64,000 nt of DNA from Escherichia phage vB_EcoM_CRJP21 (OQ708376.1), one strand, 5' to 3'. Positions 38,230 to 56,337 are shown, counted from the first letter of the stretch. Translations and numbers: made by a program. Notes: generated from the sequence alone by a model not told the origin.

Positions 38230-39432
38230 CTATTGTTGCCATAACTGCGTTGGCATTAATGTTAGTGTAGTAATACTATAAGTGCCATCTGGCAATCTAC
38301 CACCATTTCCATTCCAGCCACCACATGCATATAATTTATAATCTTTAGTAATTATTATGGTTCTGCTCCAATCTTTAGATGCCATAAGAACATTTTCATA
38401 ACCACCACTTATTGCACTAAGATTAAAAATATTCCAAGTTCTAACTAATGTATTAGTTCCATTACCTTCTTGACCATATGAGTTAGCACCACTACTTCTA
38501 ACATATGGTGCGTATTGTGCCATAGGTGCACCAATTGATGCATTTCCCATATTACTTGGACAAATAAAAGTACTGTACTTACTTACATCAACCGTGACCG
38601 ATGTGTTCCTAATTGGTGTTAGCTGATTTACCGATGTAGTCGTACCATTACCCGCTTGTCCAGTACTGTTAGCCCCGCTATAATATACAGACCCACCAGT
38701 AGTAAACCACCAAGTAACATCGTATGTAGTACTAATATGTTCTACATTACTAATCACGAATTTGTTCAAATATACAACAGAACTACCACCACATCCACTT
38801 TCACCAAAGTTATCCTTACCACAAAACCATGCATCTTTATTTGATTTGATATAGTGCGTTCCTTGTAATGAACATGCCATATGTGTAACTTCACCCATAT
38901 TAGTCATAACTGTGAGTGTAGGGATGGAATTTTTATTACCAGAGCCACATTCACCATTGGTATTTCTTCCACACGCAATTACTCTACCATCGGTTAATAA
39001 TATTCTAGTACTTTCACCTATATATACACTCTTGATCATATTAGCCATAACACCTATTTTATTAAATGCAACAGTAACATCAGTCCATGTTGTCAAATAA
39101 CCATTAACAGGTGTTGCATCTCCATAATCAGAAAATGCAGCCACAGACCCAGTGTAGTATATTTTATTATCCAAATCAATCATCAACGAACCTTGAACAC
39201 CAAGCCAAAAGGCTGCACAGTTCCTTGCAAGTACTGTAAATGACGAAACTGCTGCTGAATTCCCAAGACCAAATTGATACATGTTATTACTACCATAACC
39301 ATATAAAGTATTAGTTGGGTTATGTAGATACATACAGTTTGTATAATGTTGTTGTAAAACATCTGAGAACTCTACAGGTTCTGGACCTGGTGCAATATTT
39401 GCGTACTTAACCATTCTTCCAAAAGGTAACAT
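38230..39432 (-). CDS. RCC1-like beta-propeller repeat protein (paralog 9 of 9, first transcribed)
   Basis: N-terminus MLPFGRMVKYANIAPGP; motifs GSNNMYQFGLGN, GANSYGQEGNG; AAGGAGGGAAAT RBS with TATAAT-like box upstream. Confidence 0.7.
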   Translation of the reverse strand: MLPFGRMVKYANIAPGPEPVEFSDVLQQHYTNCMYLHNPTNTLYGYGSNNMYQFGLGNSAAVSSFTVLARNCAAFWLGVQGSLMIDLDNKIYYTGSVAAFSDYGDATPVNGYLTTWTDVTVAFNKIGVMANMIKSVYIGESTRILLTDGRVIACGRNTNGECGSGNKNSIPTLTVMTNMGEVTHMACSLQGTHYIKSNKDAWFCGKDNFGESGCGGSSVVYLNKFVISNVEHISTTYDVTWWFTTGGSVYYSGANSTGQAGNGTTTSVNQLTPIRNTSVTVDVSKYSTFICPSNMGNASIGAPMAQYAPYVRSSGANSYGQEGNGTNTLVRTWNIFNLSAISGGYENVLMASKDWSRTIIITKDYKLYACGGWNGNGGRLPDGTYSITTLTLMPTQLWQQ

Positions 39433-39480
39433 ATTTCCCTCCTTATTAATTATATCATATTTACCCCATAAAGAAAACCC

Positions 39481-39509
39481 TTGACATCCTTTCAGTACTG
39501 GTGTACTAT
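39481..39509 (+). promoter_or_regulatory. promoter TTGACA-N17-TACTAT ahead of small-protein array
   Basis: consensus -35; divergent from RCC1-array promoter region. Confidence 0.5.
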
Positions 39510-43585: not shown

Positions 43586-44570
43586 TTAAACACAAGTAGA
43601 CAGGGGAAGCTCCTAGTGAACAACCTTTATGTACAGGCGAATTGTTAAAATTCAGCCTGGACAAATGCGATCACTAGGATTCTCCCCAGGCTAAACCCCG
43701 TAATCATAGGTAGTCATAAGTAATCATATATAAACATTTATATGAGCACCGTAGAATCACAGAATGATTATATATGATTCAGTACTGATTAGTATAGACA
43801 AGAATTCTCAAGAATGCACGGGAAGGATTCAGTACTGATATGCCACTAAGTAGGCAGAGGAAGTCTGCCGTACTTTGTAGTTTCCAAGCTCCTTTTCCAT
43901 TTTTCAAATTACATCAAATGTAATCAAAAGTAATCACGCAATGATTAGTACTGAATTATTACTTTCACCTTAATTACAATTACCCTTTTACCCTTCGGGG
44001 TAAAATTCAATTACCCCTTGAGGCTCCAGCAAAAAGTTGGTTAGTACTCCATCCTAAATCTCGATCCTAAAAATTTTGGAGTACCTATGAAATAAAAGTT
44101 GGATCTTCGAAAGTTGAAATTTACGTTGGGACGTTTATGATTTGTGGGATATAATGATGTTTGTAGACGGGTAGTTCTCAAGAATATCAGTACTGAAAGA
44201 TGAAAGAAAGTTATTGACTTTATGATTCAGTACTGTATAATGTTCTACATAGGGTGATGAGTTGCTGCGAACAATTCATTTACTCTACCTCCTGTCGTGA
44301 GACAGTACAGAAAAGATAGTTCCTCCTGTGGTGGTACATCTTTTTGAACCTCATATGAAAATCGTAATAACAGTACTGATATTAACAGAATGGTGTCAGT
44401 ACTGATTTTAATCTAAAGCATTATGCCACCAGCACAAGCTGGTGGATTCCCTCTAACAGTATTCAGTACTACATGATGGTCTTCATCCTCCTAGGGTAAC
44501 ATAGTGAGGGCTATGATGGCAGTACTGAATACTCCCTTTCAAAAGATAGATCTATGGTATAGTACTGACG

Positions 44571-44759
44571 GATTTTGGGCGTAGTTACCCTGGATGGATT
44601 TTGGGCGTAGATATGTCTAGCCCTCCAGAAGTCTGGAAGTAAAGATGGCTATCCATCTAGACGGCTAAACGGCTAGATTTCTGGATGGCTGGATGGCTAG
44701 ACGTTTGGACGGCTAAACGGCTAGATGGTTACACGTCTGGAAGTATAGACGGCTAAATC
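44571..44759. repeat. iteron-like short direct repeat cluster (GGATTTTGGGCGTAG x2; ACGGCTAAACGGCTAGAT x2; GGATGGCT x2; GTCTGGAAGTA x2)
   Basis: direct repeats read in ORF-free region. Confidence 0.7.
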
Positions 44760-45384
44760 AAAATTTTATTTTGTTTTTTCCAATAGTTCCCCTACCGCGT
44801 GGGGATAGTTTCCCCGCAGTATCTGGTGTTAGATTTTTCTGAATCTGGAATCATTATCTTATAAACTGGGGGCAATGTCAACGGCCTGGCCGGATATTTT
44901 TAAAAATTTTTTCAGTACTGAATTTTGGGCGTAACTATGCACCCGGTGGGCTTGAGTCTTTCTCGACTTGATGGAACTATTATACAGTACTGGAAAAATA
45001 AAGCAATACCCTGGAAGCAAAAAAGTTTTAATTAATTTGCTTGCTATCCTGGGCCGGACTATGGTACTATATTTCAGTACTGAGAAAGTGCGTTTACCTG
45101 CTAGGGTGCGGGAGTGTATCCTTTTTTTATATCTTGAATTTTGGACGGATCTTCCCACCCCCTGGGGTATCCGCTTTCTCGCGTCTATGTAGTAATTATA
45201 CGCTTTTTCAGGATCAAGTCAATACCTAAAAACAAAATAATTGAAAATAATTTAACGCGTTTAAACGGCCTGTAAAGCCCTGGAATGATTGGAATGGTGC
45301 AAATGTATAGCTTATGTGTATTAATGCGTTAGAATGCGTCTGAGGACGTTTTACGGGGTATAGGGATGATTTAGTGGATTGATT

Positions 45385-45471
45385 CAGTACTGAATAATAG
45401 TACTCCTATATAGAAAGATAGTTCCCCTGGATGATTGCAGTACTGAATAATAGTACTCCTATATAGAAAGA
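45385..45471. repeat. 34 bp direct repeat x2 (CAGTACTGAATAATAGTACTCCTATATAGAAAGA) separated by 19 bp
   Basis: two identical copies at 45385-45418 and 45438-45471. Confidence 0.8.
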
Positions 45472-45502
45472 AAACTATTTTAAAAGTATTTGTAGAAAGT
45501 AC

Positions 45503-45561
45503 TTGCACCGTACTGATAAAAGCGTATAATGTTTTACATCGAGAGCGGGAACACTTCCCGC
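45503..45561 (+). promoter_or_regulatory. promoter (TTGCAC-N16-TATAAT) + 5' stem-loop AGCGGGAAC-N-TTCCCGCT
   Basis: first of about 25 promoter/5'-hairpin cassettes. Confidence 0.6.
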
Positions 45562-45585
45562 TACACATTAAGAGAGATTAAAACG

Positions 45586-45948
45586 ATGGCGACTCAAATC
45601 AATAAAATCATGCTTAACCTGGTAAACTTCCGCGATGAGATGAAAGGTCTTCCGGCTGAAACTGTAAAAATTCACATTGCAGCTTATCGGGAACTTATTG
45701 CAATGTTGCCGCTTAAGCGTGAACAATACGCCGCTACTTTGATGCTGGATTCAATGATCCATATAATGATCTCAAATGATTTGACGATGGTTTATCAGTA
45801 TATGGGCGAAAATTTCGCGGTGTGTAGTAAGCCAGTACCAGGGATGGCAACAACTGAGGAATTGCACGGCTTAAACTTAAAACAAGATGCATGGGATAAT
45901 ATGCCTCGTTTCCTGGTATGGGCTGACAGTGGCAAAATTTACAAATAA
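45586..45948 (+). CDS. hypothetical protein (120 aa)
   Basis: ORF track 45529-45948; ATG 45586 downstream of promoter and hairpin. Confidence 0.55.
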   Translation: MATQINKIMLNLVNFRDEMKGLPAETVKIHIAAYRELIAMLPLKREQYAATLMLDSMIHIMISNDLTMVYQYMGENFAVCSKPVPGMATTEELHGLNLKQDAWDNMPRFLVWADSGKIYK

Positions 45949-45962
45949 GTTTAATAAAGTAC

Positions 45963-46021
45963 TTGCAAACTATGTTTAATGGCGTATAATGTTTTACATC
46001 AGGTGGGGAATAGTTCCCCAC
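45963..46021 (+). promoter_or_regulatory. promoter TTGCAA-N16-TATAAT + 5' stem-loop GTGGGGAA-TAGT-TCCCCAC
   Basis: consensus hexamers; hairpin at predicted +5 to +25. Confidence 0.6.
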
Positions 46022-46041
46022 TATATAAGAGGATTAAAAAA

Positions 46042-46281
46042 ATGGCTAAATCAAAAATGTTCTTAGGTCACAAAAACAAAACTCATTGGAATGTAAGCCT
46101 TTGGATTAATAACGATGAGGGATTGTATCGGTTGGCCCAGGACTTTATTAACGATAGCACTAATCGCAATGATGCGGCCCGTCATATGATGTTATTTTTA
46201 GAACAGACTGGACAAGATAAAACACCGGACGGATTCAAATATAGCACTACTGCGATCCGTGCGGCGATGGTTGGAATGTAA
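46042..46281 (+). CDS. hypothetical protein (79 aa)
   Basis: ATG 46042 after GAGGAT. Confidence 0.55.
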   Translation: MAKSKMFLGHKNKTHWNVSLWINNDEGLYRLAQDFINDSTNRNDAARHMMLFLEQTGQDKTPDGFKYSTTAIRAAMVGM

Positions 46282-46291
46282 TAGAATTTAT

Positions 46292-46330
46292 TTAAAGTAC
46301 TATCATTTTTTTGCGATAGTACTTTATAAT
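46292..46330 (+). promoter_or_regulatory. palindrome-containing promoter-like element (AAAGTACTATC-N10-GATAGTACTTT then TATAAT)
   Basis: inverted repeat + -10 hexamer; no good -35. Confidence 0.4.
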
Positions 46331-46367
46331 AGTGTTTTATTCATACACCAACGATAAGGGCAACAGC

Positions 46368-46634
46368 ATGAAAATTAAGTATTTTGCGACGCGTGAACAA
46401 GCTCGGATCGCCGCACGCCAGGACGGGGCAACGTTTAAAGATATGGGCGTACAATCGGAACGTGGTAAACGTTGGGCCATTGTAAAGCGTAGTACCGCCA
46501 GATCATTACAGTACTGGTTAGCGGCCTTAAAAAGTCCCGATAGTGTATCGCGTCGAGTGGTAGAAATAAAGCTCGACCGAAAGGGCAACCGCGTGACCGT
46601 GTACCGTACTAAAAAGATTGCAGTACTTGAATAA
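46368..46634 (+). CDS. hypothetical protein (88 aa); paralog of 58345-58740
   Basis: MKIKYFATREQARIAARQDGATFKDMG vs MITKFYATREAARIVAREEGAAFKDMG. Confidence 0.6.
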   Translation: MKIKYFATREQARIAARQDGATFKDMGVQSERGKRWAIVKRSTARSLQYWLAALKSPDSVSRRVVEIKLDRKGNRVTVYRTKKIAVLE

Positions 46635-46642
46635 AAAGTACT

Positions 46643-46700
46643 TGCAAACTATGTTTAATGGCGTATAATGTTTTACATCGAGAGCGGGAACTCTTCCCGC
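46643..46700 (+). promoter_or_regulatory. promoter TTGCAA-N15-TATAAT + 5' stem-loop GCGGGAAC-N-TTCCCGC
   Basis: near-identical to cassette at 45963. Confidence 0.6.
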
Positions 46701-46721
46701 CTATAACCTGGAGTAATGAAA

Positions 46722-46952
46722 ATGACTAATATGTATATGACTGAAGTTAAAACCGTAAAAGATACTACCACGAATAAAACTACTTACTTACAGCGGATCT
46801 GTGGTGTATGGCAACGTATCAGCAAATCAAAGTACTTTAAATTAACATCATATGCAAACCGTTCGGATTCATTCAGTACTGAAATAAAAGGTAATAAAGT
46901 ACACCAATACGGCACTTATTATTATTATAGCCTGGACGCGATTGCAGTATAA
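46722..46952 (+). CDS. hypothetical protein (76 aa)
   Basis: ORF track 46716-46952; ATG 46722 has better spacing from GGAG. Confidence 0.5.
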   Translation: MTNMYMTEVKTVKDTTTNKTTYLQRICGVWQRISKSKYFKLTSYANRSDSFSTEIKGNKVHQYGTYYYYSLDAIAV

Positions 46953-47202
46953 GCAGTTTACAAATCTTTACAATTGCCGGTATTGACTTATTTTGTCAGT
47001 ACTGGCATAATGTATTCATTGGCAGATAAGCCGTAGCCCATAGGGTGCGGGAGTGTATCTATAGAAAAATTAGTTTAGTATAGTTACAATTGTGCACCCG
47101 GTGGGTTAGCTGTTGTCATGGGGTATATTATACCAGTACTTGATAATGCTGTCAATACTTTTTTTTTACTATTCAGTACTGAAAACTATTTTTAAAAAGT
47201 AC

Positions 47203-47348
47203 TTGCAAACTATGTTTAAAGGCGTATAATGTTTTACATCAGGACGGGGAACGAAATAAGTAACTTCCCGTTAAGTAGCCCAGGAGTAAGGCACACGAAA
47301 AACTCCCCTGATAAAATAGTTTGACAAATGTTTTTAAAAGCGTATAAT
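47203..47348 (+). promoter_or_regulatory. tandem promoters (TTGCAA..TATAAT and TTGACA..TATAAT) flanking about 80 nt structured leader
   Basis: two consensus promoters about 118 bp apart; leader holds CGGGGAAC...CCCCG-type hairpins; second copy at 57123-57267. Confidence 0.55.
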
Positions 47349-47380
47349 ACTTACATCAACTACTGAATGAGGGTTACAAA

Positions 47381-47992
47381 ATGAAAACTATCACTACTAC
47401 TACTTATGTTATGGCTTTTTCTGAATTGAACGCAGAACAACAAACGTCAGCTATCGAACTGGTTCGGGAACGTGAAAAAAACTCAAACGACAATTATTTT
47501 TCTGAAAGTGAAATTGAATACTATAAAGAAACAGTACTACCGGAATATGGCATTAATGACGCTGAAATACAATTCAGTGGTTTTTGGTCCCAGGGTGACG
47601 GTGCATCAATCAGTACTGACCACGTTGACGCAGTGAAGTTTTTACGCAAGGTAAGAGCATTAACTAAGTATCGCTCAATCCGTCACTTGCTGAATGAAGA
47701 TGATTTGGCGATGAGTGTAAAACGTTCGCACTCCCACTACTCGCATGAGAATACTGTAAGCGGGTACATTGAATCGGCTTACACTGATTTAACCGCAAAA
47801 CAAGAAACGTTAGTTAATGAGCTTGAGGAACTACTCACTGAAACTATTCGTGAATTGTCCCGCAAGTTGTACCGTGATTTAGAGAATGCATATGAGGATC
47901 AATTCACTACTGAAAACATTACGGCACTGATTGAGGGTAACGAATATCAATTCAATGTTATTGATGGCGTAGTAGAATCAATCGAATATTAA
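47381..47992 (+). CDS. hypothetical protein (203 aa)
   Basis: ORF after tandem promoter element; GAGGGT RBS. Confidence 0.6.
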   Translation: MKTITTTTYVMAFSELNAEQQTSAIELVREREKNSNDNYFSESEIEYYKETVLPEYGINDAEIQFSGFWSQGDGASISTDHVDAVKFLRKVRALTKYRSIRHLLNEDDLAMSVKRSHSHYSHENTVSGYIESAYTDLTAKQETLVNELEELLTETIRELSRKLYRDLENAYEDQFTTENITALIEGNEYQFNVIDGVVESIEY

Positions 47993-48005
47993 TTTAAAAA
48001 GTACT

Positions 48006-48075
48006 TGCAAACTAAGTTTAAAAGCGTATAATACTTTATATCGAGAGCGGGAATAGTTCCCGCTACTAATGAGGA
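48006..48075 (+). promoter_or_regulatory. promoter TTGCAA..TATAAT + 5' stem-loop AGCGGGAATAGTTCCCGCT
   Basis: cassette architecture. Confidence 0.6.
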
Positions 48076-48084
48076 ATACTACAA

Positions 48085-48249
48085 ATGAATACTTTTACCT
48101 TCGCTCAATTGAACGCCCTGGATGTATTGTCTGATGCTTTGCGGGATGCAACTGAAAGCGGTTTATTTGACAATGTTGACATTCACCCTGATGTAATTAA
48201 TAATTTTTGTGATGCTATCGCAGAAGTACTGGAAGATCTAAAAAAATAA
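48085..48249 (+). CDS. hypothetical acidic protein (54 aa)
   Basis: GAGGAAT RBS after promoter/hairpin cassette; below track cutoff. Confidence 0.45.
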   Translation: MNTFTFAQLNALDVLSDALRDATESGLFDNVDIHPDVINNFCDAIAEVLEDLKK

Positions 48250-48258
48250 TAGAAAGTA

Positions 48259-48319
48259 CTTGCAATTAGTTTTCAGTACTGTATAATGGTTTACATCAAA
48301 GGGAGAAATGGTTCTCCCT
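48259..48319 (+). promoter_or_regulatory. promoter TTGCAA-N18-TATAAT + 5' stem-loop GGGAGAA-ATGG-TTCTCCC
   Basis: cassette architecture. Confidence 0.6.
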
Positions 48320-48337
48320 GGTAATGAGGAAAATACA

Positions 48338-48559
48338 ATGGCTAATATCACTACTCTTTCCCAACTGGAAGCACTGGTTAAATCTATGCGGGAACATGCT
48401 GACAAAATCGGCGTACAAGATCCAGCCGTTTGCTTCTGCGACGAATTGAATGATGATACCCTGGTAATAGCAGAAGTCCAGGACGTTTCTAACTATTCCT
48501 CGCGTTACACTGGCGGCGTAGCAAATAAAGGTGACTTCTGTTTATACCTTACAAAATAA
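48338..48559 (+). CDS. hypothetical protein (73 aa)
   Basis: ORF track 48308-48559; ATG 48338 after GAGGAAAAT. Confidence 0.55.
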   Translation: MANITTLSQLEALVKSMREHADKIGVQDPAVCFCDELNDDTLVIAEVQDVSNYSSRYTGGVANKGDFCLYLTK

Positions 48560-48563
48560 CAAC

Positions 48564-48593
48564 GCGGGGAGATAATAACTCCCCGTTACTTTT
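48564..48593 (+). terminator. intrinsic terminator (CGGGGAG-N-CTCCCCG + T-run)
   Basis: hairpin + TTACTTTTT. Confidence 0.6.
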
Positions 48594-48727
48594 TCAGTAC
48601 TGAATCATTTAATAGACGGATCTCGGCACCCGGTGGGTTAGTGACTGTTTCGTCTTGATGTAGTAATTATGCCAGTACTGGATGCACTTGTCAACAATTA
48701 TTTTCCAAATACTTTTTATTAAAATAC

Positions 48728-48783
48728 TTGCAATTAGTTTTTAAACGCGTATAATGTTTTGCATAGGGGGAGCGGTTCCCCTG
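48728..48783 (+). promoter_or_regulatory. promoter TTGCAA..TATAAT + 5' G-rich stem-loop
   Basis: cassette architecture. Confidence 0.55.
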
Positions 48784-48802
48784 GTAACTAAGGAATAATA
48801 AA

Positions 48803-49039
48803 ATGCTTGAACAAATCAAATCAACGTCTTCGAATGTAACGGGAACGGTAGCACACTTTACTAGTGATGAATCGCGGGGCGTTCCCTATTGTGCTGTACA
48901 TGTAAACACTGAGGGTAACTACTGGTTTACGGTTTACGGATCATATTCATTTGGACGGCCTGGACATCAAAAAATTCTGGATAAAGTACAACCAACGGGT
49001 AAAAATATCACTGCCGAAATGTTTTATAAAAAATCATAA
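48803..49039 (+). CDS. hypothetical protein (78 aa)
   Basis: AAGGAAT RBS. Confidence 0.55.
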   Translation: MLEQIKSTSSNVTGTVAHFTSDESRGVPYCAVHVNTEGNYWFTVYGSYSFGRPGHQKILDKVQPTGKNITAEMFYKKS

Positions 49040-49044
49040 AGTAC

Positions 49045-49103
49045 TTGCAATTAGTTTTTAGTACTGTATAATATTTTACATCGCAAGGGGAAACGGTTTC
49101 CCC
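49045..49103 (+). promoter_or_regulatory. promoter TTGCAA-N16-TATAAT + 5' stem-loop GGGGAAAC-GG-TTTCCCC
   Basis: cassette architecture. Confidence 0.6.
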
Positions 49104-49123
49104 TGGTAACTAAGGATAATCAA

Positions 49124-49423
49124 ATGAAAATTGCAATCATCGCCCTGGCTTTATCTGTTTCCTCTTTCGCTGTTAATGCGTCATTAGATGTAAGTAGTGA
49201 AAAATTCATTCAGTGCACTGTTGCAATGACCGATGAAAGAACTGGCGAGATTGTATTAAAGGATTTAGAGATCCAGCCGGAAGCATTTAAAAACGGCCCG
49301 TTCCATGAAGAAGACGAAAACGGTAGCACGACAATTTATTATGATGCCAGTACTAAACGCGGTTCGGTCACTGTAATGGATACCGAGAAAGTAACTCATA
49401 CCGGCGTTATTAATTGCCGTTGA
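49124..49423 (+). CDS. secreted protein (signal peptide)
   Basis: N-terminus MKIAIIALALSVSSFAVNAS. Confidence 0.55.
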   Translation: MKIAIIALALSVSSFAVNASLDVSSEKFIQCTVAMTDERTGEIVLKDLEIQPEAFKNGPFHEEDENGSTTIYYDASTKRGSVTVMDTEKVTHTGVINCR

Positions 49424-49444
49424 TAGATACTACGGGGTAACATC

Positions 49445-49675
49445 ATGACTAAGCGAATTGTTTTACTTAACGAAAGCAGTACTACACAACTACTTAACGC
49501 CGTGCATTATGATATTGAAACGAGCGTTAATCTTATCAGTACTGTAGTTCTGTTGGACACTGGAAAGGTAGCCAATGATAAAGCGATTGCAGGTATACTA
49601 ACGGATCTTGTGCCTGGTAGCAGTGCACCAATAACGTTAAATGGTAAAGTGTTTAATATTTTACTCACTGATTAA
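49445..49675 (+). CDS. hypothetical protein (76 aa)
   Basis: ORF in track; GGGG-rich RBS. Confidence 0.45.
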   Translation: MTKRIVLLNESSTTQLLNAVHYDIETSVNLISTVVLLDTGKVANDKAIAGILTDLVPGSSAPITLNGKVFNILLTD

Positions 49676-49681
49676 GTACAT

Positions 49682-49709
49682 AGCCCACCTGGTGGGCTTT
49701 TTTGTTTTT
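49682..49709 (+). terminator. intrinsic terminator (AGCCCACC-TGGT-GGGCT + T-run)
   Basis: hairpin + T6GT5. Confidence 0.7.
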
Positions 49710-49757
49710 GTAGTATCGTAGTACTGAGATACTTTGAAAATAGTTTTAAAAAAGTAG

Positions 49758-49785
49758 TTGACATTACCACAGAAAAGCGTAGAAT
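49758..49785 (+). promoter_or_regulatory. promoter TTGACA-N16-TAGAAT with about 120 nt leader
   Basis: hexamers read; long leader before ATG 49909. Confidence 0.5.
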
Positions 49786-49908
49786 GTATTACATCAAGAC
49801 GGGGAGCACTAAGTAGACCGCCAGTAAGTCGAACGAAAAACTGGACACGTCGAGAAAACTTTGATACACTAATAAACGTAAACTAAACTTTAATTGAGGA
49901 TTTATAAA

Positions 49909-50391
49909 ATGGCTAATGTAAAATCATTCATCAAAGCACTGGTAGCAAATGAAACTAACGTCGCGGCTGAGATCCTGGCTGAACTGGATAACGATACCAT
50001 GAAAGCGGTACGCAACAATTTTAACATTGCGTACAGTGAAGCTAAAGAACTGCAAGCCAAAAAGGTAGCAGAACTGGAAGAACAGAAAAAAGCCCGTGAA
50101 GCAGAACTACAAGCAACAATTGAAAGTATTCAGGCGGCAGTGTCTGGATTGGATCTGGAAGTGGTTGTAGAAATGGCACATAAAGCCCTGGCGGTTAAGT
50201 ACGGTGAAGATAAGCCGGAATCTAAACCTAAAAAATGGATTCAAGAACGTGTTACTGTAGTACTTGATAACGGTGAAGAACATTTGATTCCTGTACGCGG
50301 TAACTGCATTGCGGTAGTACTGGACGCTATCAAAGAAAGCGGTATGACTCGCGAGGAATGGATCGAAGCTCATCGCAAAGTTGAAGCATAA
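49909..50391 (+). CDS. hypothetical protein (160 aa)
   Basis: ORF track 49894-50391; ATG 49909 after GAGGAT. Confidence 0.55.
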   Translation: MANVKSFIKALVANETNVAAEILAELDNDTMKAVRNNFNIAYSEAKELQAKKVAELEEQKKAREAELQATIESIQAAVSGLDLEVVVEMAHKALAVKYGEDKPESKPKKWIQERVTVVLDNGEEHLIPVRGNCIAVVLDAIKESGMTREEWIEAHRKVEA

Positions 50392-50412
50392 CAATTAAAG
50401 TACTGAATCACT

Positions 50413-50439
50413 AGCCCACCTTAAACAGTGGGCTTTTTT
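50413..50439 (+). terminator. intrinsic terminator (AGCCCAC-N-GTGGGCT + T6)
   Basis: hairpin + T-run after gene stop. Confidence 0.7.
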
Positions 50440-50593
50440 GTGTCTGTAGTATTCCAGTCCACCAGCACCGCCTAGAATCGATTCTAACGCATTAAACTGA
50501 TTATCTGATACATCGCCCTAGCTGGTGGCGTTAAGGTCGTTAGAATGCGATTGAGAGCGTTTAAAGTATTTTGCAAAAAGTAATAAAAAGTAC

Positions 50594-50655
50594 TTGCACG
50601 ATTAAGAGATTAGCGTATAATGTTTTACATCGAGAGGGGGAAACGGTTCTCCTTC
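50594..50655 (+). promoter_or_regulatory. promoter TTGCAC..TATAAT + 5' stem-loop
   Basis: cassette architecture. Confidence 0.55.
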
Positions 50656-50676
50656 CAAATCAAAGGAATCAAAACA

Positions 50677-50904
50677 ATGGCTATTATCATTACTCGCGTA
50701 TCTGGTACTACTGGCAACGAACAAGTAGTTGCAGTCATTACTAACAAGGCAGGTGCGGAATTGCAAAATGCAATGAATACCTGGGCCGTTAATGAGTTCG
50801 GTCAGTGGGCAAGTGTAGCATACATTGAAACCTATCAAGTGCCGTCGATTAGTTTAACTGATTTGGGCGTTGAGCGTATCCTTTGCCTGGATGAATTAAA
50901 TTAA
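50677..50904 (+). CDS. hypothetical protein (75 aa)
   Basis: ORF track 50620-50904; ATG 50677 after AAGGAAT. Confidence 0.55.
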   Translation: MAIIITRVSGTTGNEQVVAVITNKAGAELQNAMNTWAVNEFGQWASVAYIETYQVPSISLTDLGVERILCLDELN

Positions 50905-50913
50905 AAAAAGTAC

Positions 50914-50973
50914 TTGCAAAGTAAATCGAATAAAGTATAATACATTACATCAAGGGGAGAAATGATTCTCCCC
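50914..50973 (+). promoter_or_regulatory. promoter TTGCAA-N16-TATAAT + 5' stem-loop GGGGAGAA-ATGA-TTCTCCCC
   Basis: cassette architecture. Confidence 0.6.
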
Positions 50974-50990
50974 ACTACAAGGAAACTAAA

Positions 50991-51203
50991 ATGGCTATCA
51001 TTACTAAAATCAAAGTTAACAAGACTATCGTTAAACTGGCAGAAGTGAAAGAAGGTTATAAAGTATCTTGGTGCGGTATGTATCGGACGTTCGCAGATAT
51101 AGATGATGCGATCAATTATTACAGTGACACGGTTAAAAACTTTGTTCGTGCTGATGTGGTTATGGCAGTGGCAACATATAAAGCAGCGAAAGAAAGTAAG
51201 TAA
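50991..51203 (+). CDS. hypothetical protein (70 aa)
   Basis: AAGGAAAC RBS. Confidence 0.55.
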   Translation: MAIITKIKVNKTIVKLAEVKEGYKVSWCGMYRTFADIDDAINYYSDTVKNFVRADVVMAVATYKAAKESK

Positions 51204-51226
51204 AAATATTATCACAGTACTATTGA

Positions 51227-51261
51227 CATAGTTTGATAGTACTGGCATAATAGATTTTATC
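51227..51261 (+). promoter_or_regulatory. promoter with embedded palindrome AGTACTAT-TGACATAGTTTG-ATAGTACT (operator-like), -10 CATAAT
   Basis: 8 bp inverted arms flank -35 TTGACA and spacer; the same or a closely related palindrome architecture recurs at 46292, 53833, 54093, 58262 and 61888. Confidence 0.55.
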
Positions 51262-51294
51262 AAGACGACACATATTAATTTAAGGAATACTAAA

Positions 51295-51618
51295 ATGGCT
51301 AAAACTATCATCAACACCGTTTCCCTGGCTGCAATCCATGCAATCAATGTTGACGGTAAACGTTGGACTGATTCATATGGCAATACTTATCATTCTTGTC
51401 ATGTAAGCGTTGAACTGGATAACGGCTTGAATGATCTGGCGGTTGAATCATTTACTTATGGCTATGAGGATGCATATCAACAAACGGCGGTATCACTCTT
51501 AAAGGAATCAGTAGACGGGCTTGATACTGTTGAAACCTCCCTCTATCGTTTGTGCAATGATCTTAATATCCCGTTGCATTGTACTGTACAGGATGTAAAA
51601 CGTAAAAAAGATCTTTAA
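51295..51618 (+). CDS. hypothetical protein (107 aa); paralog of 57926-58249
   Basis: shared W/RWTD-x-GNTYHSC, FTYGY, DVKRKKD segments. Confidence 0.6.
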   Translation: MAKTIINTVSLAAIHAINVDGKRWTDSYGNTYHSCHVSVELDNGLNDLAVESFTYGYEDAYQQTAVSLLKESVDGLDTVETSLYRLCNDLNIPLHCTVQDVKRKKDL

Positions 51619-51698
51619 TTAGCTTTACTTTATGCAGATACTTTGATATAGTGTCTGCATAGGGGAAAGAAATTAAATCAACTTAAGAGGAAAGTAAA

Positions 51699-51968
51699 AT
51701 GAAAAATATCAGTACTTTAATCGATGCAGGTACACATGTTCGTCGGTCTATGGTTGCAACCAGTTCTACAAAACAAGTAGCGAGCGGTTATCTTGTATTT
51801 GTGCACGATGGAAAACTCCTGGAACGTTCAATCAATTTTGATGTTAAAAACAATTGCCGTTTTATTATCTTTCGCCGTGAACAATATAAAATTGATTTGC
51901 CAGCGAAGCCCATTAGCGGGGCGTACAACGTGCAATCATTGTTTGAGCGTCAACCTTACACCTATTAA
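51699..51968 (+). CDS. hypothetical protein (89 aa)
   Basis: AGAGGAAAGT RBS. Confidence 0.5.
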   Translation: MKNISTLIDAGTHVRRSMVATSSTKQVASGYLVFVHDGKLLERSINFDVKNNCRFIIFRREQYKIDLPAKPISGAYNVQSLFERQPYTY

Positions 51969-52019
51969 TCAAAACATCGTTAGCGGTCGATTTAGGCCGC
52001 TTATATTGGGGATTATACC

Positions 52020-52292
52020 ATGAACGTTAATCAAGTACTGAATGAGATCGAAAGCATCATTAAACCGATGAAGCGTACTGATGCTATGTTAACACCGGAA
52101 GAATGCCGCCTTTATGAGCGTTACAGCGTCGAACAAGTCCAGGCAATGGCTATGGCTACCCCAGCCGTTTCACCGCCTGAGAATGCGTTACAGGACGTTA
52201 CAGGGGATTATATCATTAATCCAGTACTAGGGAAGATGACTGCAATCACCGAAGATCAAAAAGACTACTTAAGCCAGTACTTAAAAGGTTAA
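52020..52292 (+). CDS. hypothetical protein (90 aa)
   Basis: ORF in track. Confidence 0.5.
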   Translation: MNVNQVLNEIESIIKPMKRTDAMLTPEECRLYERYSVEQVQAMAMATPAVSPPENALQDVTGDYIINPVLGKMTAITEDQKDYLSQYLKG

Positions 52293-52297
52293 TTAAT

Positions 52298-52507
52298 ATG
52301 CTTACTGTACAGGATAAGATCGACATCTTAAAGGTTAATATGTATGTGATTGATGCCGTACCTGGTAAAGTATTTGCATACGATGATAGTACTGTAAGCG
52401 ATTTCTACTATAGCCAGGACGTGGGGGATCTTTCTGTACAGTCGGTTATTGAAAACGTAGTTAATGCAGCGTATGAGCATTTACTTTCAAATAGTACTTG
52501 CAATTAG
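52298..52507 (+). CDS. hypothetical protein (69 aa)
   Basis: ORF in track; 3' end overlaps next promoter. Confidence 0.45.
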   Translation: MLTVQDKIDILKVNMYVIDAVPGKVFAYDDSTVSDFYYSQDVGDLSVQSVIENVVNAAYEHLLSNSTCN

Positions 52508-52557
52508 TTTTTAAACGCGTATAATGTTTTACATGAAGGGGAGAAATGATTCTCCCC
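52498..52557 (+). promoter_or_regulatory. promoter TTGCAA-N16-TATAAT + 5' stem-loop GGGGAGAA-ATGA-TTCTCCCC
   Basis: cassette architecture. Confidence 0.6.
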
Positions 52558-52575
52558 AATAACAGGAGAAACAAA

Positions 52576-52728
52576 ATGAAACAATACAACGCTCGGTTTG
52601 ATGTTACTATCGGTAACGGCAAAGGTCAATTCTCTTTCAGTACTCGCCGCAGTTATACAGAAAACTTCCTGCGTAATTGTGCACTGACCGCCGCTCAAAT
52701 TAAACACTATTTTCAGGCTAAAAAATGA
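52576..52728 (+). CDS. hypothetical basic protein (50 aa)
   Basis: ORF track 52546-52728; ATG 52576 after AGGAGAAAC. Confidence 0.45.
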   Translation: MKQYNARFDVTIGNGKGQFSFSTRRSYTENFLRNCALTAAQIKHYFQAKK

Positions 52729-52814
52729 AATCATTAGCTTATTACAGTTCGGCCCTGGTCGGTGCATTGATCGCGGCATTGTTAGTAACCTATCTATTCT
52801 TTATGGTGATTTAA
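52725..52814 (+). CDS. putative membrane micro-protein (29 aa)
   Basis: ATGA overlap with upstream stop; single hydrophobic helix; speculative. Confidence 0.25.
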   Translation: MKSLAYYSSALVGALIAALLVTYLFFMVI

Positions 52815-52958
52815 ATGAATCCAACAGGTTTAAACTATAAAAGTTGTTCTGCATTTACGAAAGCAAATAAAGCGAATGCACGTAAAGCGAAAGTACAGGA
52901 ATACATCAAGCAAGGCATGACGCGAAAAGCGGCGATTATAAAAGCTAAAAATAAATGA
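52815..52958 (+). CDS. putative basic micro-protein (47 aa)
   Basis: ATG directly after upstream stop; ends at terminator element; speculative. Confidence 0.25.
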   Translation: MNPTGLNYKSCSAFTKANKANARKAKVQEYIKQGMTRKAAIIKAKNK

Positions 52959-52963
52959 AAAAA

Positions 52964-52996
52964 GTGGTTGACTTCGGTCAGCCATTTTGTTATTAT
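52964..52996 (+). terminator. bifunctional terminator/promoter element (variant)
   Basis: GGTTGAC-TTCG-GTCAGCC; TATTAT downstream. Confidence 0.55.
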
Positions 52997-53089
52997 ATAT
53001 TCATTGAGAGATAGCTCACTAGCCCACAGGGTGCAGGAGTGTATCTATTGTATGAGTATTGAGTACTGAAAACTATTTTTAAAAAGTAC

Positions 53090-53148
53090 TTGCAAACTAT
53101 CTCAATAAGCGTATAATGTTTTACATCGAAAGGGGAAACGGTTTCCCC
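53090..53148 (+). promoter_or_regulatory. promoter TTGCAA-N16-TATAAT + 5' stem-loop GGGGAAAC-GG-TTTCCCC
   Basis: cassette architecture. Confidence 0.6.
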
Positions 53149-53168
53149 TGGTAATAAGGAAACAAATC

Positions 53169-53510
53169 ATGACTATCTCAATTGCTCAATCTAACTTTGA
53201 AAATGAAATCATCGCCCAGGCACTGCGTTTAAATGATGGTCGGGCCGAAATTAATTACGGTTTCAATTCAGGCGGTTGCGAAAAATATCAGTACTTTGTA
53301 ACGGCTGATGGCGGTGTCCTGGGTATCAATACAGTTATTGTAAACATCCAAAAAATTAATTTCAATGATCCAGACGATAGCCAGTTTTACATCACTGGCG
53401 TAGACGTGAACTATGAGGATGACTCACTAACTGATGATCACACTGGCGAGCGGTTAGAAAGTGCATACGGTGAAGATGATTATCAGTCCGGTCCAGAAGA
53501 TTTCGAATAA
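53169..53510 (+). CDS. hypothetical acidic protein (113 aa)
   Basis: AAGGAAAC RBS. Confidence 0.55.
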   Translation: MTISIAQSNFENEIIAQALRLNDGRAEINYGFNSGGCEKYQYFVTADGGVLGINTVIVNIQKINFNDPDDSQFYITGVDVNYEDDSLTDDHTGERLESAYGEDDYQSGPEDFE

Positions 53511-53524
53511 TATAAAAAAATAGT

Positions 53525-53584
53525 TTGACAATAGATTATAGTACTGTATAATAGTTTACATCAAGGGGAGAAAAACTTCTCCCC
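53525..53584 (+). promoter_or_regulatory. promoter TTGACA-N16-TGTATAAT + 5' stem-loop
   Basis: cassette architecture. Confidence 0.6.
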
Positions 53585-53606
53585 ACTAACAGAGAGAGAA
53601 AACAAA

Positions 53607-53819
53607 ATGGCTAATATCCGGTCGAAATTAAAAAATGCAAAACAAGTTTTATTTTCAGATCATGAATACTTTAATAAAGATATTACAGGAGTTACAAGTA
53701 TCAAGGAAGTAAAAGAAAAAACCGGCGTTTTGTGTGATGTGCGATTAGTTGGAACATTTGGGAATAACGTGCTATATCGCTGCGGTGATTACAATTTTAC
53801 ACTGACTATCATTAACTAA
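53607..53819 (+). CDS. hypothetical protein (70 aa)
   Basis: AGAGAGAGA RBS-like. Confidence 0.5.
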   Translation: MANIRSKLKNAKQVLFSDHEYFNKDITGVTSIKEVKEKTGVLCDVRLVGTFGNNVLYRCGDYNFTLTIIN

Positions 53820-53832
53820 AAATATTATCACA

Positions 53833-53867
53833 GTACTATTGACATAGTTTGATAGTACTGACATAAT
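53833..53867 (+). promoter_or_regulatory. palindrome-containing promoter (AGTACTATTGACATAGTTTGATAGTACT)
   Basis: same architecture as 51227. Confidence 0.55.
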
Positions 53868-53901
53868 AACTTTTATCAACTACACTATTAAGGAATTAAA
53901 A

Positions 53902-54081
53902 ATGGCTATCATCGCAAAAACTGAAATCGTTGGTCTGGATTCTATCATCATGACGTTTGAAGATCAAAAAGGTATGTATGTAGTTTCATATGGTGATTAT
54001 GTTCGGGAGTATGAAACGGTAGACGAAGCCTTTGAAAGTTACATTCGCCAGGTGAATAAAGCATACGACGATTACCGCTAA
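53902..54081 (+). CDS. hypothetical protein (59 aa)
   Basis: AAGGAAT RBS; below track cutoff. Confidence 0.45.
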   Translation: MAIIAKTEIVGLDSIIMTFEDQKGMYVVSYGDYVREYETVDEAFESYIRQVNKAYDDYR

Positions 54082-54092
54082 AATATATTACC

Positions 54093-54136
54093 AGTACTAT
54101 TAAAGATATTGACAACGTTTGATAGTACTGTATAAT
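54093..54136 (+). promoter_or_regulatory. palindrome-containing promoter (AGTACTAT..TTGACA..ATAGTACTG TATAAT)
   Basis: same architecture as 51227. Confidence 0.55.
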
Positions 54137-54180
54137 AAGTTTTATCAACAGTAGTTAACTTAACCTAAGAGAGAAATAAA

Positions 54181-54324
54181 ATGATCGCACTGGATTCATT
54201 CATCGACGCAGTACTGGCAAAAACTGGCGAGGATCTGACCGCAGAACAATACGCAATGATCGAGCAATGCCAGCAAGACGGTAAATCGGTGAAAGATACT
54301 GTTAAGATTATCCGCAAGATGTAA
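54181..54324 (+). CDS. hypothetical protein (47 aa)
   Basis: AGAGAGAAAT RBS-like; below track cutoff. Confidence 0.4.
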   Translation: MIALDSFIDAVLAKTGEDLTAEQYAMIEQCQQDGKSVKDTVKIIRKM

Positions 54325-54330
54325 GATTAT

Positions 54331-54362
54331 AGCCCACTGGTTAACGCTGGTGGGCTTTAATT
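54331..54362 (+). terminator. terminator-like hairpin AGCCCACTGG-N-CCAGCGGGCT-like with weak T tract
   Basis: inverted repeat read; T-run weak. Confidence 0.4.
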
Positions 54363-54429
54363 CATTACCCTATACAATGCCAGTACTAAACCGTTTATCT
54401 CGTTAGAATGCGTTACAGGACGTTTAACA

Positions 54430-54627
54430 ATGATTAGCATGAAATCAGTACAAAAACAAATAGAAACATTATCAAAAATTAAACGTAAACAGTACTCCTT
54501 AGAATATACAATCAATGGTAACTATCATCTAATGAAAGAGAATAATTTTATAGTCATTGATGAATCATTGCAAATCATTAGTATAGTACTGAAAGCATTA
54601 ATCAATGACAGAAAAAAATTAAAATAA
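54430..54627 (+). CDS. hypothetical protein (65 aa)
   Basis: ORF in track; AT-rich. Confidence 0.4.
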   Translation: MISMKSVQKQIETLSKIKRKQYSLEYTINGNYHLMKENNFIVIDESLQIISIVLKALINDRKKLK

Positions 54628-54631
54628 ACTA

Positions 54632-54660
54632 TTGACAATATCATCAAGTACTGGCATAAT
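54632..54660 (+). promoter_or_regulatory. promoter TTGACA-N17-CATAAT
   Basis: hexamers read; followed by about 300 nt without a + strand ORF. Confidence 0.5.
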
Positions 54661-54958
54661 ACTTACATCAAGACGAGAACGTCACTAACCCATAGGGTGC
54701 ACAAATGTAACTGTATAATATTGATCAAAAAATGATCTGATCAATACTTGATCAATTTGCGTAAAGTAGTATAATTCTATGCAGTTGGTTAGACGAAAGG
54801 TTATGATTAGTAGTGCAAGTGTATAAAAATTTTCATGGTGTATCGTTTCGCACATATGGGGATGAATATGTGGTATCATGTGGATTGGAAAAAGTAAGAA
54901 CAAGTAATATTATTGTCGCATTACAGTACTATAGTATTTTTATAATGAGGTTAAAATA

Positions 54959-55216
54959 ATGGCTGTAGGATTCGCGAAAGATGGGGCCGAACAAGACGAG
55001 ATTAACGCAGTGATTCAGGCCGCCGTTAACCACGCTAGAAAGCAAATTAACGCACAAATAGAATCACTGATACATTGCCTCGACTGCGGCGATATAATCC
55101 CTGAGAATCGACGCCAGGCCGTTAAGGGATGTAAGTACTGCATAACTTGCCAGGAGGATCATGATAGTACTTTTAAACGTCCCCCGCGTAATTGTTGGCA
55201 TAGATCTATGAGATAA
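54959..55216 (+). CDS. DksA/TraR family C4-type zinc-finger protein
   Basis: CLDCGDIIPENRRQAVKGCKYCITCQ matches TraR-type C-x2-C-x17-C-x2-C pattern with conserved IP..RR. Confidence 0.6.
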   Translation: MAVGFAKDGAEQDEINAVIQAAVNHARKQINAQIESLIHCLDCGDIIPENRRQAVKGCKYCITCQEDHDSTFKRPPRNCWHRSMR

Positions 55217-55222
55217 AAAGTA

Positions 55223-55250
55223 TTGACAGTACTGAAAGATAGTGTATAAT
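55223..55250 (+). promoter_or_regulatory. promoter TTGACA-N16-TATAAT
   Basis: consensus hexamers. Confidence 0.55.
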
Positions 55251-55279
55251 GTTTTATATCTTAACTGAGGATAGAAATC

Positions 55280-55636
55280 ATGGGAATACAACATATCACG
55301 CGTACTACTGACAATGGCGAGATCACTGGTTATCAAGTACAGGGCAAAGTAGCACAATTGCAGTACTGGTTTGTTAAACGTGGAATCATTGCACCGGATC
55401 TTGATTATGACCGTGTAGCGTTTATTGATTCTCTTTATGTTGATCCTGATAGTCGGGGCAATGGTGAAGGTAACGAATTAATGAATGCCTTTATTGATGC
55501 CGCCGATGATTCAGATTGTATCATTTTAGAATGCGATACGGGAGAAGATAACGCCTTTAATCTTAAAGAATGGTACGAAGGTTTCGGATTCGAGGTACTG
55601 ATCGATAGTGAATATCCTATCATGATTTTATCATAG
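55280..55636 (+). CDS. GNAT-like N-acetyltransferase (putative)
   Basis: YVDPDSRGNGEGNELM and NAFNLKEWYEGFGFE resemble GNAT motifs A and B; motif-level only. Confidence 0.45.
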   Translation: MGIQHITRTTDNGEITGYQVQGKVAQLQYWFVKRGIIAPDLDYDRVAFIDSLYVDPDSRGNGEGNELMNAFIDAADDSDCIILECDTGEDNAFNLKEWYEGFGFEVLIDSEYPIMILS

Positions 55637-55638
55637 TA

Positions 55639-55696
55639 CTTGCATTTAGTTTTCAGTAGTGTTATAGTACTTACATCAAGGGGAAACATCTTCCCC
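55639..55696 (+). promoter_or_regulatory. promoter-like + 5' stem-loop GGGGAAACATCTTCCCC
   Basis: weaker -10 (TATAGT). Confidence 0.45.
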
Positions 55697-55708
55697 TACT
55701 AAGAGGAA

Positions 55709-55903
55709 ATGAAAATGGAAAACTTATCAAGTATTTTAGTACAAGATGATTTCGGTAATCCTGGAAGTGCTATCATTGTTCGGGGTAATAAAGCAACATT
55801 TGTTATTGCTGGTGGACCTGTACAGCGTAGCATTAAAAACAATGCCGTTACTATTAATAATGTACGCTATCGCTTAGATAAAGAATTGATTCATAAACTG
55901 TAA
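55709..55903 (+). CDS. hypothetical protein (64 aa)
   Basis: GAGGAAAT RBS. Confidence 0.5.
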   Translation: MKMENLSSILVQDDFGNPGSAIIVRGNKATFVIAGGPVQRSIKNNAVTINNVRYRLDKELIHKL

Positions 55904-55930
55904 TATTAATTTAATAGAGGATAACAATAA

Positions 55931-56254
55931 ATGTACATTCATACTACTATCACAAAGGAAGTCCGTTGCCAGTTCGAAAGTATTCCGGGCGTATGTTTCA
56001 TCACTGGTACGTTTTCCCCTGGTGATCGTGATAATCCAGTACTGTTACAATTACGCCATCCATCATGGGATAAAGCATTTGATCTACCGTTGAATGAATT
56101 CGCAACTACTGCTGAAAAGTACATTAAAAATATTCGCGAGAATGATCGACTATTCATTAATGCTTTTAGTGATTCCGCGTTAAGCGAGATCCACGGTGTA
56201 TTGGTTGCAATCATGGAATCAATGGAGAAAACTAAATTCAAACAAGGTGAATAA
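55931..56254 (+). CDS. hypothetical protein (107 aa)
   Basis: AGAGGAT RBS. Confidence 0.55.
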   Translation: MYIHTTITKEVRCQFESIPGVCFITGTFSPGDRDNPVLLQLRHPSWDKAFDLPLNEFATTAEKYIKNIRENDRLFINAFSDSALSEIHGVLVAIMESMEKTKFKQGE

Positions 56255-56260
56255 AAACTA

Positions 56261-56320
56261 TTGACAAGATAATCTAGTACTGTATAATAAGTTACATGAA
56301 GGGGAGAAATGATTCTCCCC
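56261..56320 (+). promoter_or_regulatory. promoter TTGACA-N17-TATAAT + 5' stem-loop GGGGAGAA-ATGA-TTCTCCCC
   Basis: cassette architecture. Confidence 0.6.
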
Positions 56321-56337
56321 ACTGAGAGGAAAGAAAA

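Follow-up and report, generated by a model that had tools for sequence, protein, structure and literature searches.

The stretch of DNA analysed here, 64,000 nucleotides of Escherichia phage vB_EcoM_CRJP21 (OQ708376.1) and referred to below as the window, ends in an array of small genes that forms a direct terminal repeat. The annotated 21.5-kb repeat of Asteriusvirus vB_Ec-M-J corresponds to window positions 43849-64000, repeat and window ending at the same point, and position 1 of the packaged vB_Ec-M-J genome, its left physical end, maps to 43849. Most genes of the array have a sigma-70 promoter of their own, followed by a GC-rich hairpin, and about 25 of these promoter cassettes are near-identical, with the form AGTACTTGCA..N16..TATAATGTTTTACATC. 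In most of the early cassettes (44209-63136) the first transcribed bases are AUCGAGAG(C/G)GGG, a near match to the T7 A1 start AUCGAGAGGGACACGG, and the palindrome AGTACT recurs on the immediate 5' side of the -35 hexamer and of the -10 hexamer. At three points of the array, 3.4, 5.9 and 13.3 kb from the left physical end, a promoter is followed by a larger structured element, of which we call the copies A, C and B, respectively; around it the window is 97-99.9% identical to Asteriusvirus jumbo coliphages, among them Ecwhy_1, PBECO4 and 121Q (the PBECO4/121Q type).

A first-pass annotation of the sequence had described the segment 47203-47348 and a near-copy as a duplicated element, in which two promoters flank a structured leader that might be a small RNA or a cis-regulatory leader. 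The duplication holds: 47150-47400 and 57070-57320 align with 85% mean column identity and a single 2-nt indel, which falls inside the element. The flanking promoters are likewise present at both sites, and a fold of about 75 nt with two hairpins, H1 and P2, is recovered by single-sequence folding and by RNAalifold. The count of two was right for a 24-nt core pattern, which occurs only at the quoted sites (0 expected), but missed a third, divergent copy at 49793-49865. The window thereby holds exactly three copies, A (47238-47312), B (57150-57222) and C (49793-49865), all on the plus strand, each taken to run from the predicted +1 to the last base of the closing helix; the core covariance model (R1) matches 47270-47312, 49808-49850 and 57180-57222 at 52-55 bits, and its next best match in the window scores 9 bits.

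Copy A (75 nt; covariance-model match 54.5 bits, E=8e-12) lies downstream of promoter P1 (47203-47230, plus strand; TTGCAA, 16-nt spacer, TATAAT), which has an A/T-rich, UP-like stretch on its 5' side (47176-47199). Because this promoter is one of the approximately 25 near-identical early cassettes, the promoter part of the A/B duplication is generic, and it is the RNA-coding part of about 75 nt that is specific. Transcription of copy A is predicted to start at 47238, by analogy with the T7 A1 start; the +1 was placed at the A of 'ATC' because the initial transcribed sequence of the cassettes resembles the T7 A1 transcript. From that point the closing helix, also designated P1, pairs AUCAGG (47238-47243) with CCUGAU (47307-47312), enclosing hairpin H1 (47244-47271), the heptamer UAAGUAG (47272-47278) and helix P2, in which GGAG (47283-47286) pairs with CUCC (47303-47306) around the loop UAAGGCACACGAAAAA (47287-47302). 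Two further strands, G-C-C at 47278-47280 and G-G-C at 47290-47292 within the loop, would form a pseudoknot. Single-sequence folding, the RNAalifold consensus and covariation all support this fold. Downstream, promoter P2 (47321-47348, plus strand; TTGACA-16-TATAAT, agreeing with the consensus at 12 of 12 positions) drives a gene of unknown function at 47381-47992 (phrog_5162).

Copy B (73 nt; 52.7 bits, with the same fold) repeats this arrangement: promoter P1 (57115-57142, plus strand; -35 TTGCAT at 57115-57120, -10 TATAAT at 57137-57142), helix P1 (57150-57155 with 57217-57222), H1 (57156-57181), UAAGUAG (57182-57188), helix P2 (57193-57196 with 57213-57216) around the loop UAAGACAUAAGAAAAC (57197-57212), a tertiary pair between U57189 and A57201, and a promoter P2 (57231-57258, plus strand; TTGACA-16-TATAAT) that drives the gene at 57292-57567 (phrog_14947). 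Between A and B the element is 89% identical, compared with 79-80% for the 60-nt flanks. Copy C (73 nt; 52.7 bits) sits between two strong terminators and lacks both H1 and a second promoter. Its own promoter (49758-49785, plus strand; TTGACA-16-TAGAAT) follows directly on the terminator at 49682-49698, and its closing helix is made of two segments (AUCAA 49793-49797 with UUGAU 49861-49865, and GACG 49798-49801 with CGUC 49848-49851), followed inward by UAAGUAG (49810-49816) and a P2 helix of CCAG (49821-49824) with CUGG (49841-49844) around a loop at 49825-49840. The gene after it (49909-50391, phrog_27871) ends before a terminator at 50413-50434, and since no second promoter intervenes, this copy is simply the 5' leader of an mRNA. 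For the phrog_27871 protein, which is 160 aa long and matches no Pfam family, a homologue (E=8e-8) is encoded immediately behind the element of Erwinia phage Hallingskeid, the only element-gene pairing that we saw conserved (loci 49909-50391; L147 8167-8793; L146 3758-4345); judged by eye only, a similar C-terminal stretch can be made out in gp006 of Salmonella phage Munch.

Several other repeated features share the window with the element. One is a second family of cassettes, seemingly gene-less, in which a strong promoter and about 25 nt precede CCCA-NN-GGGUGC-N5-6-GU(A/C)UCUAU; pattern matches lie at 47037, 53023, 54689, 57045, 60320 and 62573 on the plus strand and at 44939, 45155, 47094 and 48626 on the minus strand. 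There are 11 matches where 0.8 would be expected by chance, 10 of them inside the terminal repeat, and no Rfam family matches these cassettes. Element copies A and B are each preceded by one of them, and those at 47037 (plus) and 47094 (minus) are convergent and overlapping. Another is a set of composite terminator/promoter hairpins, GGGTTGAC-TTCG-GTCAGCCC followed by a T-rich run and a hexamer that resembles a -10 element (TATAAT, TATTAT or a close relative of these), whose -35 hexamer falls within the terminator stem; 11 copies (0 expected) lie at 10221, 13464, 13647, 16309, 20804, 22086, 24044, 52965, 56992, 60262 and 62520, and they fit the idea of a composite promoter-terminator promoter-early stem-loop (PeSL; PMC4122927). 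Farther upstream, a 68-118 nt repeat at 30795-39504, in six or seven copies spaced about 1.2 kb apart, is suggestive of a series of paralogous units, on the minus strand, whose upstream regions are conserved. Finally, about 0.8 kb from the left genome end, units of the form NGANGGCT (GGATGGCT, AGACGGCT, AAACGGCT and others) repeat with an 8-nt period at 44627-44754; this array may be a signal related to the terminus or to injection; T7 too has short repeat arrays near its left end.

The element extends well beyond this genus. A BLAST search with the element alone found it in all Asteriusvirus records and, at 88-92% identity, in the Justusliebigvirus (phi92-like) phages outra, muut and EmilieFrey and in two Vequintavirinae, A7_1 and A5-4; phages A73 and W70 are probably carriers of the Justusliebigvirus type as well. 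Elements of the copy C type occur in other jumbo phages, among them Munch (Salmonella), fENko-Kae01 (Klebsiella) and Hallingskeid (Erwinia), and where such a record begins at the physical end the element again lies a few kb from that end. Pattern scans of viral and metagenomic contigs revealed the core in many T7-like contigs of 37-45 kb, T7 itself among them. The T7 element (63.5 bits) spans bases 536-593, that is, +39 to +96 of the A1 transcript, and lies between promoters A1 (498) and A2 (626) of the annotated record, upstream of A3 (750) and of the gene 0.3 start (925), in a stretch that carries no annotation; the covariance model finds no second element in the A2-A3 leader. Judged by this match, the A1-A2 leader is a member of the same RNA family. 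With the T7 version as query, BLAST retrieved 486 records of T7-like phages infecting Escherichia, Klebsiella, Salmonella, Yersinia, Enterobacter, Citrobacter, Shigella and Serratia. Exact-pattern scans undercount the family, because Kayfunavirus and Przondovirus variants (L151-L158), in which ACGAACAAC replaces ACGAAAAAC or CAAGUAG replaces UAAGUAG, deviate from the pattern and still score 43-63 bits.

All members are built on an invariant core, in which UAAGUAG and four further nucleotides lead into helix P2 (4-5 bp) and a conserved loop of 16-17 nt, (A)UAAG.C..ACGAAAAA, whose variation across the family is described by (A)UAAG-N-C-NN-A(C/A)GAA(A/C)A(A/C/U); the three window copies all carry UAAGUAG, N4 and a 4-5 bp hairpin with a loop of the form (A)UAAG.C..A(C/A)GAA.A. 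Helix P2 occurs as GGAG/CUCC, CCAG/CUGG, CCUG/CAGG, CUUG/CAAG and CCUG/CGGG; it is paired in 94% of cases, with changes on both sides at four of its five pairs, and none of 500 shuffles reached the observed covariation. The closing helix P1, formed between the strand upstream of UAAGUAG and the strand right after P2, covaries as well. It takes at least nine forms in T7-like phages (GUCAA/UUGAC, GUCAAG/CUUGAC, GUCAGA/UCUGAC, GUCAC/GUGAC, GUCAUC/GAUGAC, GUCAUC/GAUGGC, GUCGGU/ACCGAC, GAUUAG/CUAAUC and GCUAA/UUAGC), and there its 5' strand is at the same time the loop of a small hairpin, S1, giving a second pseudoknot; S1 covaries in turn (CCGG/CCGG, CCAG/CUGG, CGGG/CCCG, CCAC/GUGG). For S1, P1 and P2 of the T7-like phages together, both-sided changes affect 10 of 15 pairs and pairing holds in 90% of cells, values reached in 0 of 500 shuffles, and pairing falls to 16-35% when the partner columns are slid. 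In window copies A and B, RNAalifold gives a three-way junction, with AUCAGG/CCUGAU starting at the predicted +1 and enclosing H1; in copy C and the other jumbo phages the closing helix is split in two, and H1 may be present or absent. Each window copy thus combines a closing helix (AUCAGG/CCUGAU in A and B, AUCAA+GACG/CGUC+UUGAU in C) with an upstream sigma-70 promoter.

A tertiary contact can also be read from the alignment. In 18 of 18 distinct cores the nucleotide that follows UAAGUAG (N1) can form a Watson-Crick pair with the one that follows the UAAG of the loop (N1') (A-U 12, U-A 4, C-G 1, G-C 1); the pair is C-G in copy A, U-A in copy B and A-U in copy C, and one more U-A comes from a further Kayfunavirus sequence. 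Flanked by an invariant G-C and an invariant C-G, it makes a 3-bp helix, G-N-C/G-N'-C, between junction and loop, which on this comparative evidence is predicted to form an H-type pseudoknot with an A-rich third loop, ..ACGAAAAA. Among the pairs that are not Watson-Crick, G-U or U-G outnumbers A-C or C-A by 10 to 1, which argues that the pairing takes place in the sense-strand RNA and is not a property of double-stranded DNA. Covariation, which the first-pass annotation had proposed as a check between the two copies, is seen across phage families, where both-sided changes are found, but not among the closely related A/B-type copies, whose changes are one-sided only; the structural case for the window copies accordingly rests on homology to the wider family. 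Single-sequence folding z-scores are modest (-1.8, -2.4). An extra G and an extra C in muut, considered as a compensatory pair, are unpaired in the final model and may be homopolymer noise. The cross-family covariation of the helices and of the tertiary pair supports the earlier suggestion of a small RNA or a cis-regulatory leader, and we regard it as very probable that this is a real structured RNA family.

The family is apparently undescribed. A scan of Rfam 15, which the first-pass annotation had proposed, gave no match anywhere in the window at the gathering threshold and only noise for copy A and the T7 leader at E<=10, and 3.2 kb of the T7 left end gave none at E<=0.1; this marks the element as undescribed and does not speak against it. 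ARAGORN found no tRNA or tmRNA genes in the window. Across the relatives the element is never annotated as a functional element, and in the literature that we searched the motif goes undescribed, the T7 sequence turning up there only as a template, as in PMC7430646, where the T7 A1 template carries the element sequence; the older T7 literature in subscription journals lay outside the search. A small open reading frame was considered and rejected: the 31-codon frame of copy A begins in the -10 hexamer, upstream of the predicted start, and the 2-nt indel breaks that of copy B; minus-strand frames over the element are likewise unconserved. No terminator follows the element and no ribosome-binding site is sequestered. 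A resemblance to type III antitoxin RNAs (ToxI-like, with 34-45 nt tandem repeats beside a toxin gene) was considered and rejected: copies of the element are single and kilobases apart, Rfam offers no match, and the neighbours are small proteins of unknown function.

The element is better conserved than the sequence around it. Compared with phages of other families it is 84-92% identical, against 55-82% for the 60-nt flanks, two 100% flanks excepted. Both exceptions belong to muut, whose upstream flank is 100% identical to that of outra and whose downstream flank, with promoter P2 and a gene for 91 aa, is 100% identical to that of window copy B, the same promoter and gene following the element at muut 1500-1700 and at 57150-57567. 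Because these flanks match two different phages perfectly, the element can be placed at recombination junctions, and the mosaic indicates that a phi92-like phage and a jumbo phage recently exchanged DNA, the breakpoint falling at the element. In Vequintavirinae A7_1 it lies between two promoters of that lineage's own type (TTGACA..TTAAGAT). By a strict regular expression, 41 of 50 distinct loci have an upstream promoter at a fixed distance, and 38 of 50 have a downstream promoter within 41 nt. The genes that follow belong to unrelated families (phrog_5162, phrog_27871, phrog_14947, DUF7249 and T7 ocr), and a role as a gene-specific regulator was rejected, the downstream proteins being unrelated and only copy C and Hallingskeid keeping a homologous neighbour. 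An origin in the host was rejected too, the element being absent from the chromosomes of E. coli and of other bacteria: a scan of 185,579 species genomes gave 34 pattern matches, 33 of them without the stem and the remaining one a T7-like contig, and BLAST found no match in 5,426 E. coli genomes.

Virulent phages of Enterobacterales encode, right behind strong early promoters of the host type, a conserved RNA domain that is pseudoknotted and specific to one strand. It lies in the part of the genome that is first to enter the cell, is swapped between unrelated phages of the same host group, does not depend on the gene downstream and is present in three copies per terminal repeat; it is predicted to be made at the very start of infection. 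That one RNA is common to T7, jumbo, phi92-like and rV5-like phages implies a function tied to the host and not to a phage lineage, exerted as infection begins. A cassette of promoter plus element has no open reading frame and no terminator and stands upstream of ordinary cassettes of promoter plus gene, from which we infer that its product is the RNA itself. Host RNA polymerase starting at promoter P1 would make the element as the first 75 nt or so of the transcript. The RNA would then close on itself, its first nucleotides pairing with its last in helix P1, with H1 as an optional hairpin and P2 as a short one, and the 16-17 nt loop of P2 would pair back through 3 bp onto the junction beside the invariant UAAGUAG. 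The invariant unpaired nucleotides would in this way be presented to a component common to all the hosts, a host protein or the transcription or RNA-decay machinery, and the abundant early RNA may bind or titrate it. The acting form might be the 5' domain of the promoter P1 transcript, or a piece set free when the A/U-rich spacer is cut. As neither a terminator nor a defined 3' end follows the element, a discrete small RNA is a conjecture. We give about an even chance to the reading as a whole, that of a structured immediate-early RNA family from gene-less promoter cassettes that acts on a conserved host component, and rather less than that to the specific proposal that the element works by binding or titrating a host factor. 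More tentative still is the view that it represents a new immediate-early class of double-pseudoknot phage RNA, spread over T7-like podoviruses, jumbo myoviruses and phi92/rV5-like phages, that captures or modifies a host component in the first minute of infection, with RNA polymerase, a factor in RNA decay or RNA chaperoning, or a defence sensor as candidates.

The conserved unpaired bases could, against this reading, serve the fold itself and not a partner, and the element would then be a purely cis-acting protective 5' domain that buries the triphosphate end in a compact fold against decay by RppH and RNase E, or against Rho. This explanation, to which we would assign a clearly minor share of the probability, draws on the way the element takes the place of the simple GC hairpins after the other 25 or so promoters, on a helix P1 that starts at the predicted +1, on a pseudoknot with an A-rich loop, a mechanically stable type of fold, and on copy C, which is the sole leader of its gene. 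Those same neighbouring cassettes make do with a plain hairpin, however, and an invariance of sequence that spans unrelated phage families exceeds what a stabiliser needs. The established picture in T7 also stands against it: Dunn and Studier reportedly found in 1983 that RNase III cuts the leader off the gene 0.3 mRNA at R0.3, and protection of that mRNA therefore does not explain the conservation of the T7 element. Because of this cut, and because promoter P2 after copies A and B makes an mRNA without the element, we favour an RNA product over a mere mRNA stabiliser. A cis-acting modifier like the put sites of phage HK022, in which nascent RNA binds its own polymerase and makes it resist pausing or termination, would account for a promoter-proximal position in every lineage whatever the downstream gene, for a location in the DNA that enters the cell first, and for the sharing of the element by unrelated phages, which implies that host components suffice. 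We consider it unlikely: polymerases that start at P2, or at A2 and A3 in T7, would escape modification, the transcription units of the terminal repeat are short, and the strong terminator after the copy C gene would be pointless; the covariance model moreover finds nothing similar in the HK022 immunity region, and in architecture the element is unlike a pair of adjacent stem-loops.

In general architecture, the combination of an H-type pseudoknot, an A-rich third loop and invariant junction bases also recalls small aptamers such as preQ1-I and SAM-II, and the element might by the same token bind a host metabolite or ion and switch the downstream gene. Nothing that could serve as an expression platform accompanies it, however; with no terminator or sequestered ribosome-binding site (the site is 60 to 330 nt away), and usually a promoter between element and gene, a gene-specific riboswitch is improbable, the more so as the downstream genes are functionally unrelated and no Rfam riboswitch model matches even at E<=10, and we give it little weight. 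About as little weight falls on an explanation at the level of DNA alone, as a PeSL-type recombination cassette, an UP element or operator of the downstream promoter, or a neutral hitch-hiking duplication. The mosaic boundaries do coincide with the element (the flanks of muut, outra and copy B), the A-tract of the T7 loop lies at about -45 of promoter A2, and PeSL cassettes are documented in T4-type phages (PMC2839356, PMC4122927); yet compensatory change in three helices and in the tertiary pair, together with the strong preference for G-U over A-C, points to RNA. As an UP element it was rejected for want of conserved spacing, the distance to the downstream promoter varying from 1 to 41 nt and the promoter being absent from copy C. 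Recombination may well make use of the element, probably as a genuine side effect of the kind known from PeSLs, yet leaves its structure unexplained.

The reading as a host-directed early RNA bears on one of the best-studied viruses. A stretch between A1 and A2 of T7 that has been treated as spacer contains a covarying, pseudoknotted RNA, which jumbo phages of 350 kb also keep in their terminal repeats and which has been passed between them and the phi92-like and rV5-like phages; if the element does belong to a new class of the kind outlined above, the first 100 or so nucleotides transcribed by T7 have an undiscovered function. It may be a common phage RNA tool against Enterobacterales, and one that is directly testable in T7. 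With the covariance model, annotators could mark a feature that at present they leave blank or hide under spurious 'hypothetical protein' calls.

Among known structured RNAs, the pistol self-cleaving ribozyme also has a hairpin loop pseudoknotted with a downstream strand and a linker that resembles UUAAAUAG. It was rejected as a relative: its Rfam model gives no match even at E<=10 on short stretches, the strands come in another order and a P3 helix is missing. Run-off transcription routinely uses T7 A1 templates, and we know of no report of cleavage. Stem-loops that stabilise a transcript at its 5' terminus, such as that of the ompA 5' UTR, hold the 5' end in a helix near +1 and need neither a conserved loop nor a pseudoknot; the element is like them in tying up its 5' end in a helix that begins no more than a few nucleotides from +1. 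The putL and putR sites of HK022 are cis-acting antiterminator RNAs, structured and located just downstream of early promoters, for which the host polymerase alone suffices. The element is like them in position and logic only: put consists of two stem-loops with a single unpaired base between them, the element of a three-way junction or pseudoknot with an 11-nt linker from H1 to P2, and across HK022 22.0-40.7 kb no score of the covariance model exceeds 8 bits.

PeSL cassettes of T4-type phages place an early promoter and a stem-loop before small genes, in variable regions and at recombination junctions (PMC2839356, PMC4122927). The 25 or so cassettes of the window, with their composite hairpins and mosaic flanks, fit this description. 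The element itself differs from the simple, terminator-like hairpin of a PeSL in having 73-75 nt, three helices, a pseudoknot and invariant loops, and in being shared with podoviruses. The closest counterpart is the A1-A2 leader of T7 (536-593), which has the same core and hairpin, the same G-N-C/G-N'-C pairing and the same place between tandem sigma-70 promoters. In the T7 type, unlike in the window, the loop of a small hairpin supplies the closing strand and so adds a second pseudoknot, and a separate 5' domain of about 38 nt precedes the element; in copies A and B, unlike in T7, the closing helix P1 begins at +1 and encloses H1, giving a three-way junction.
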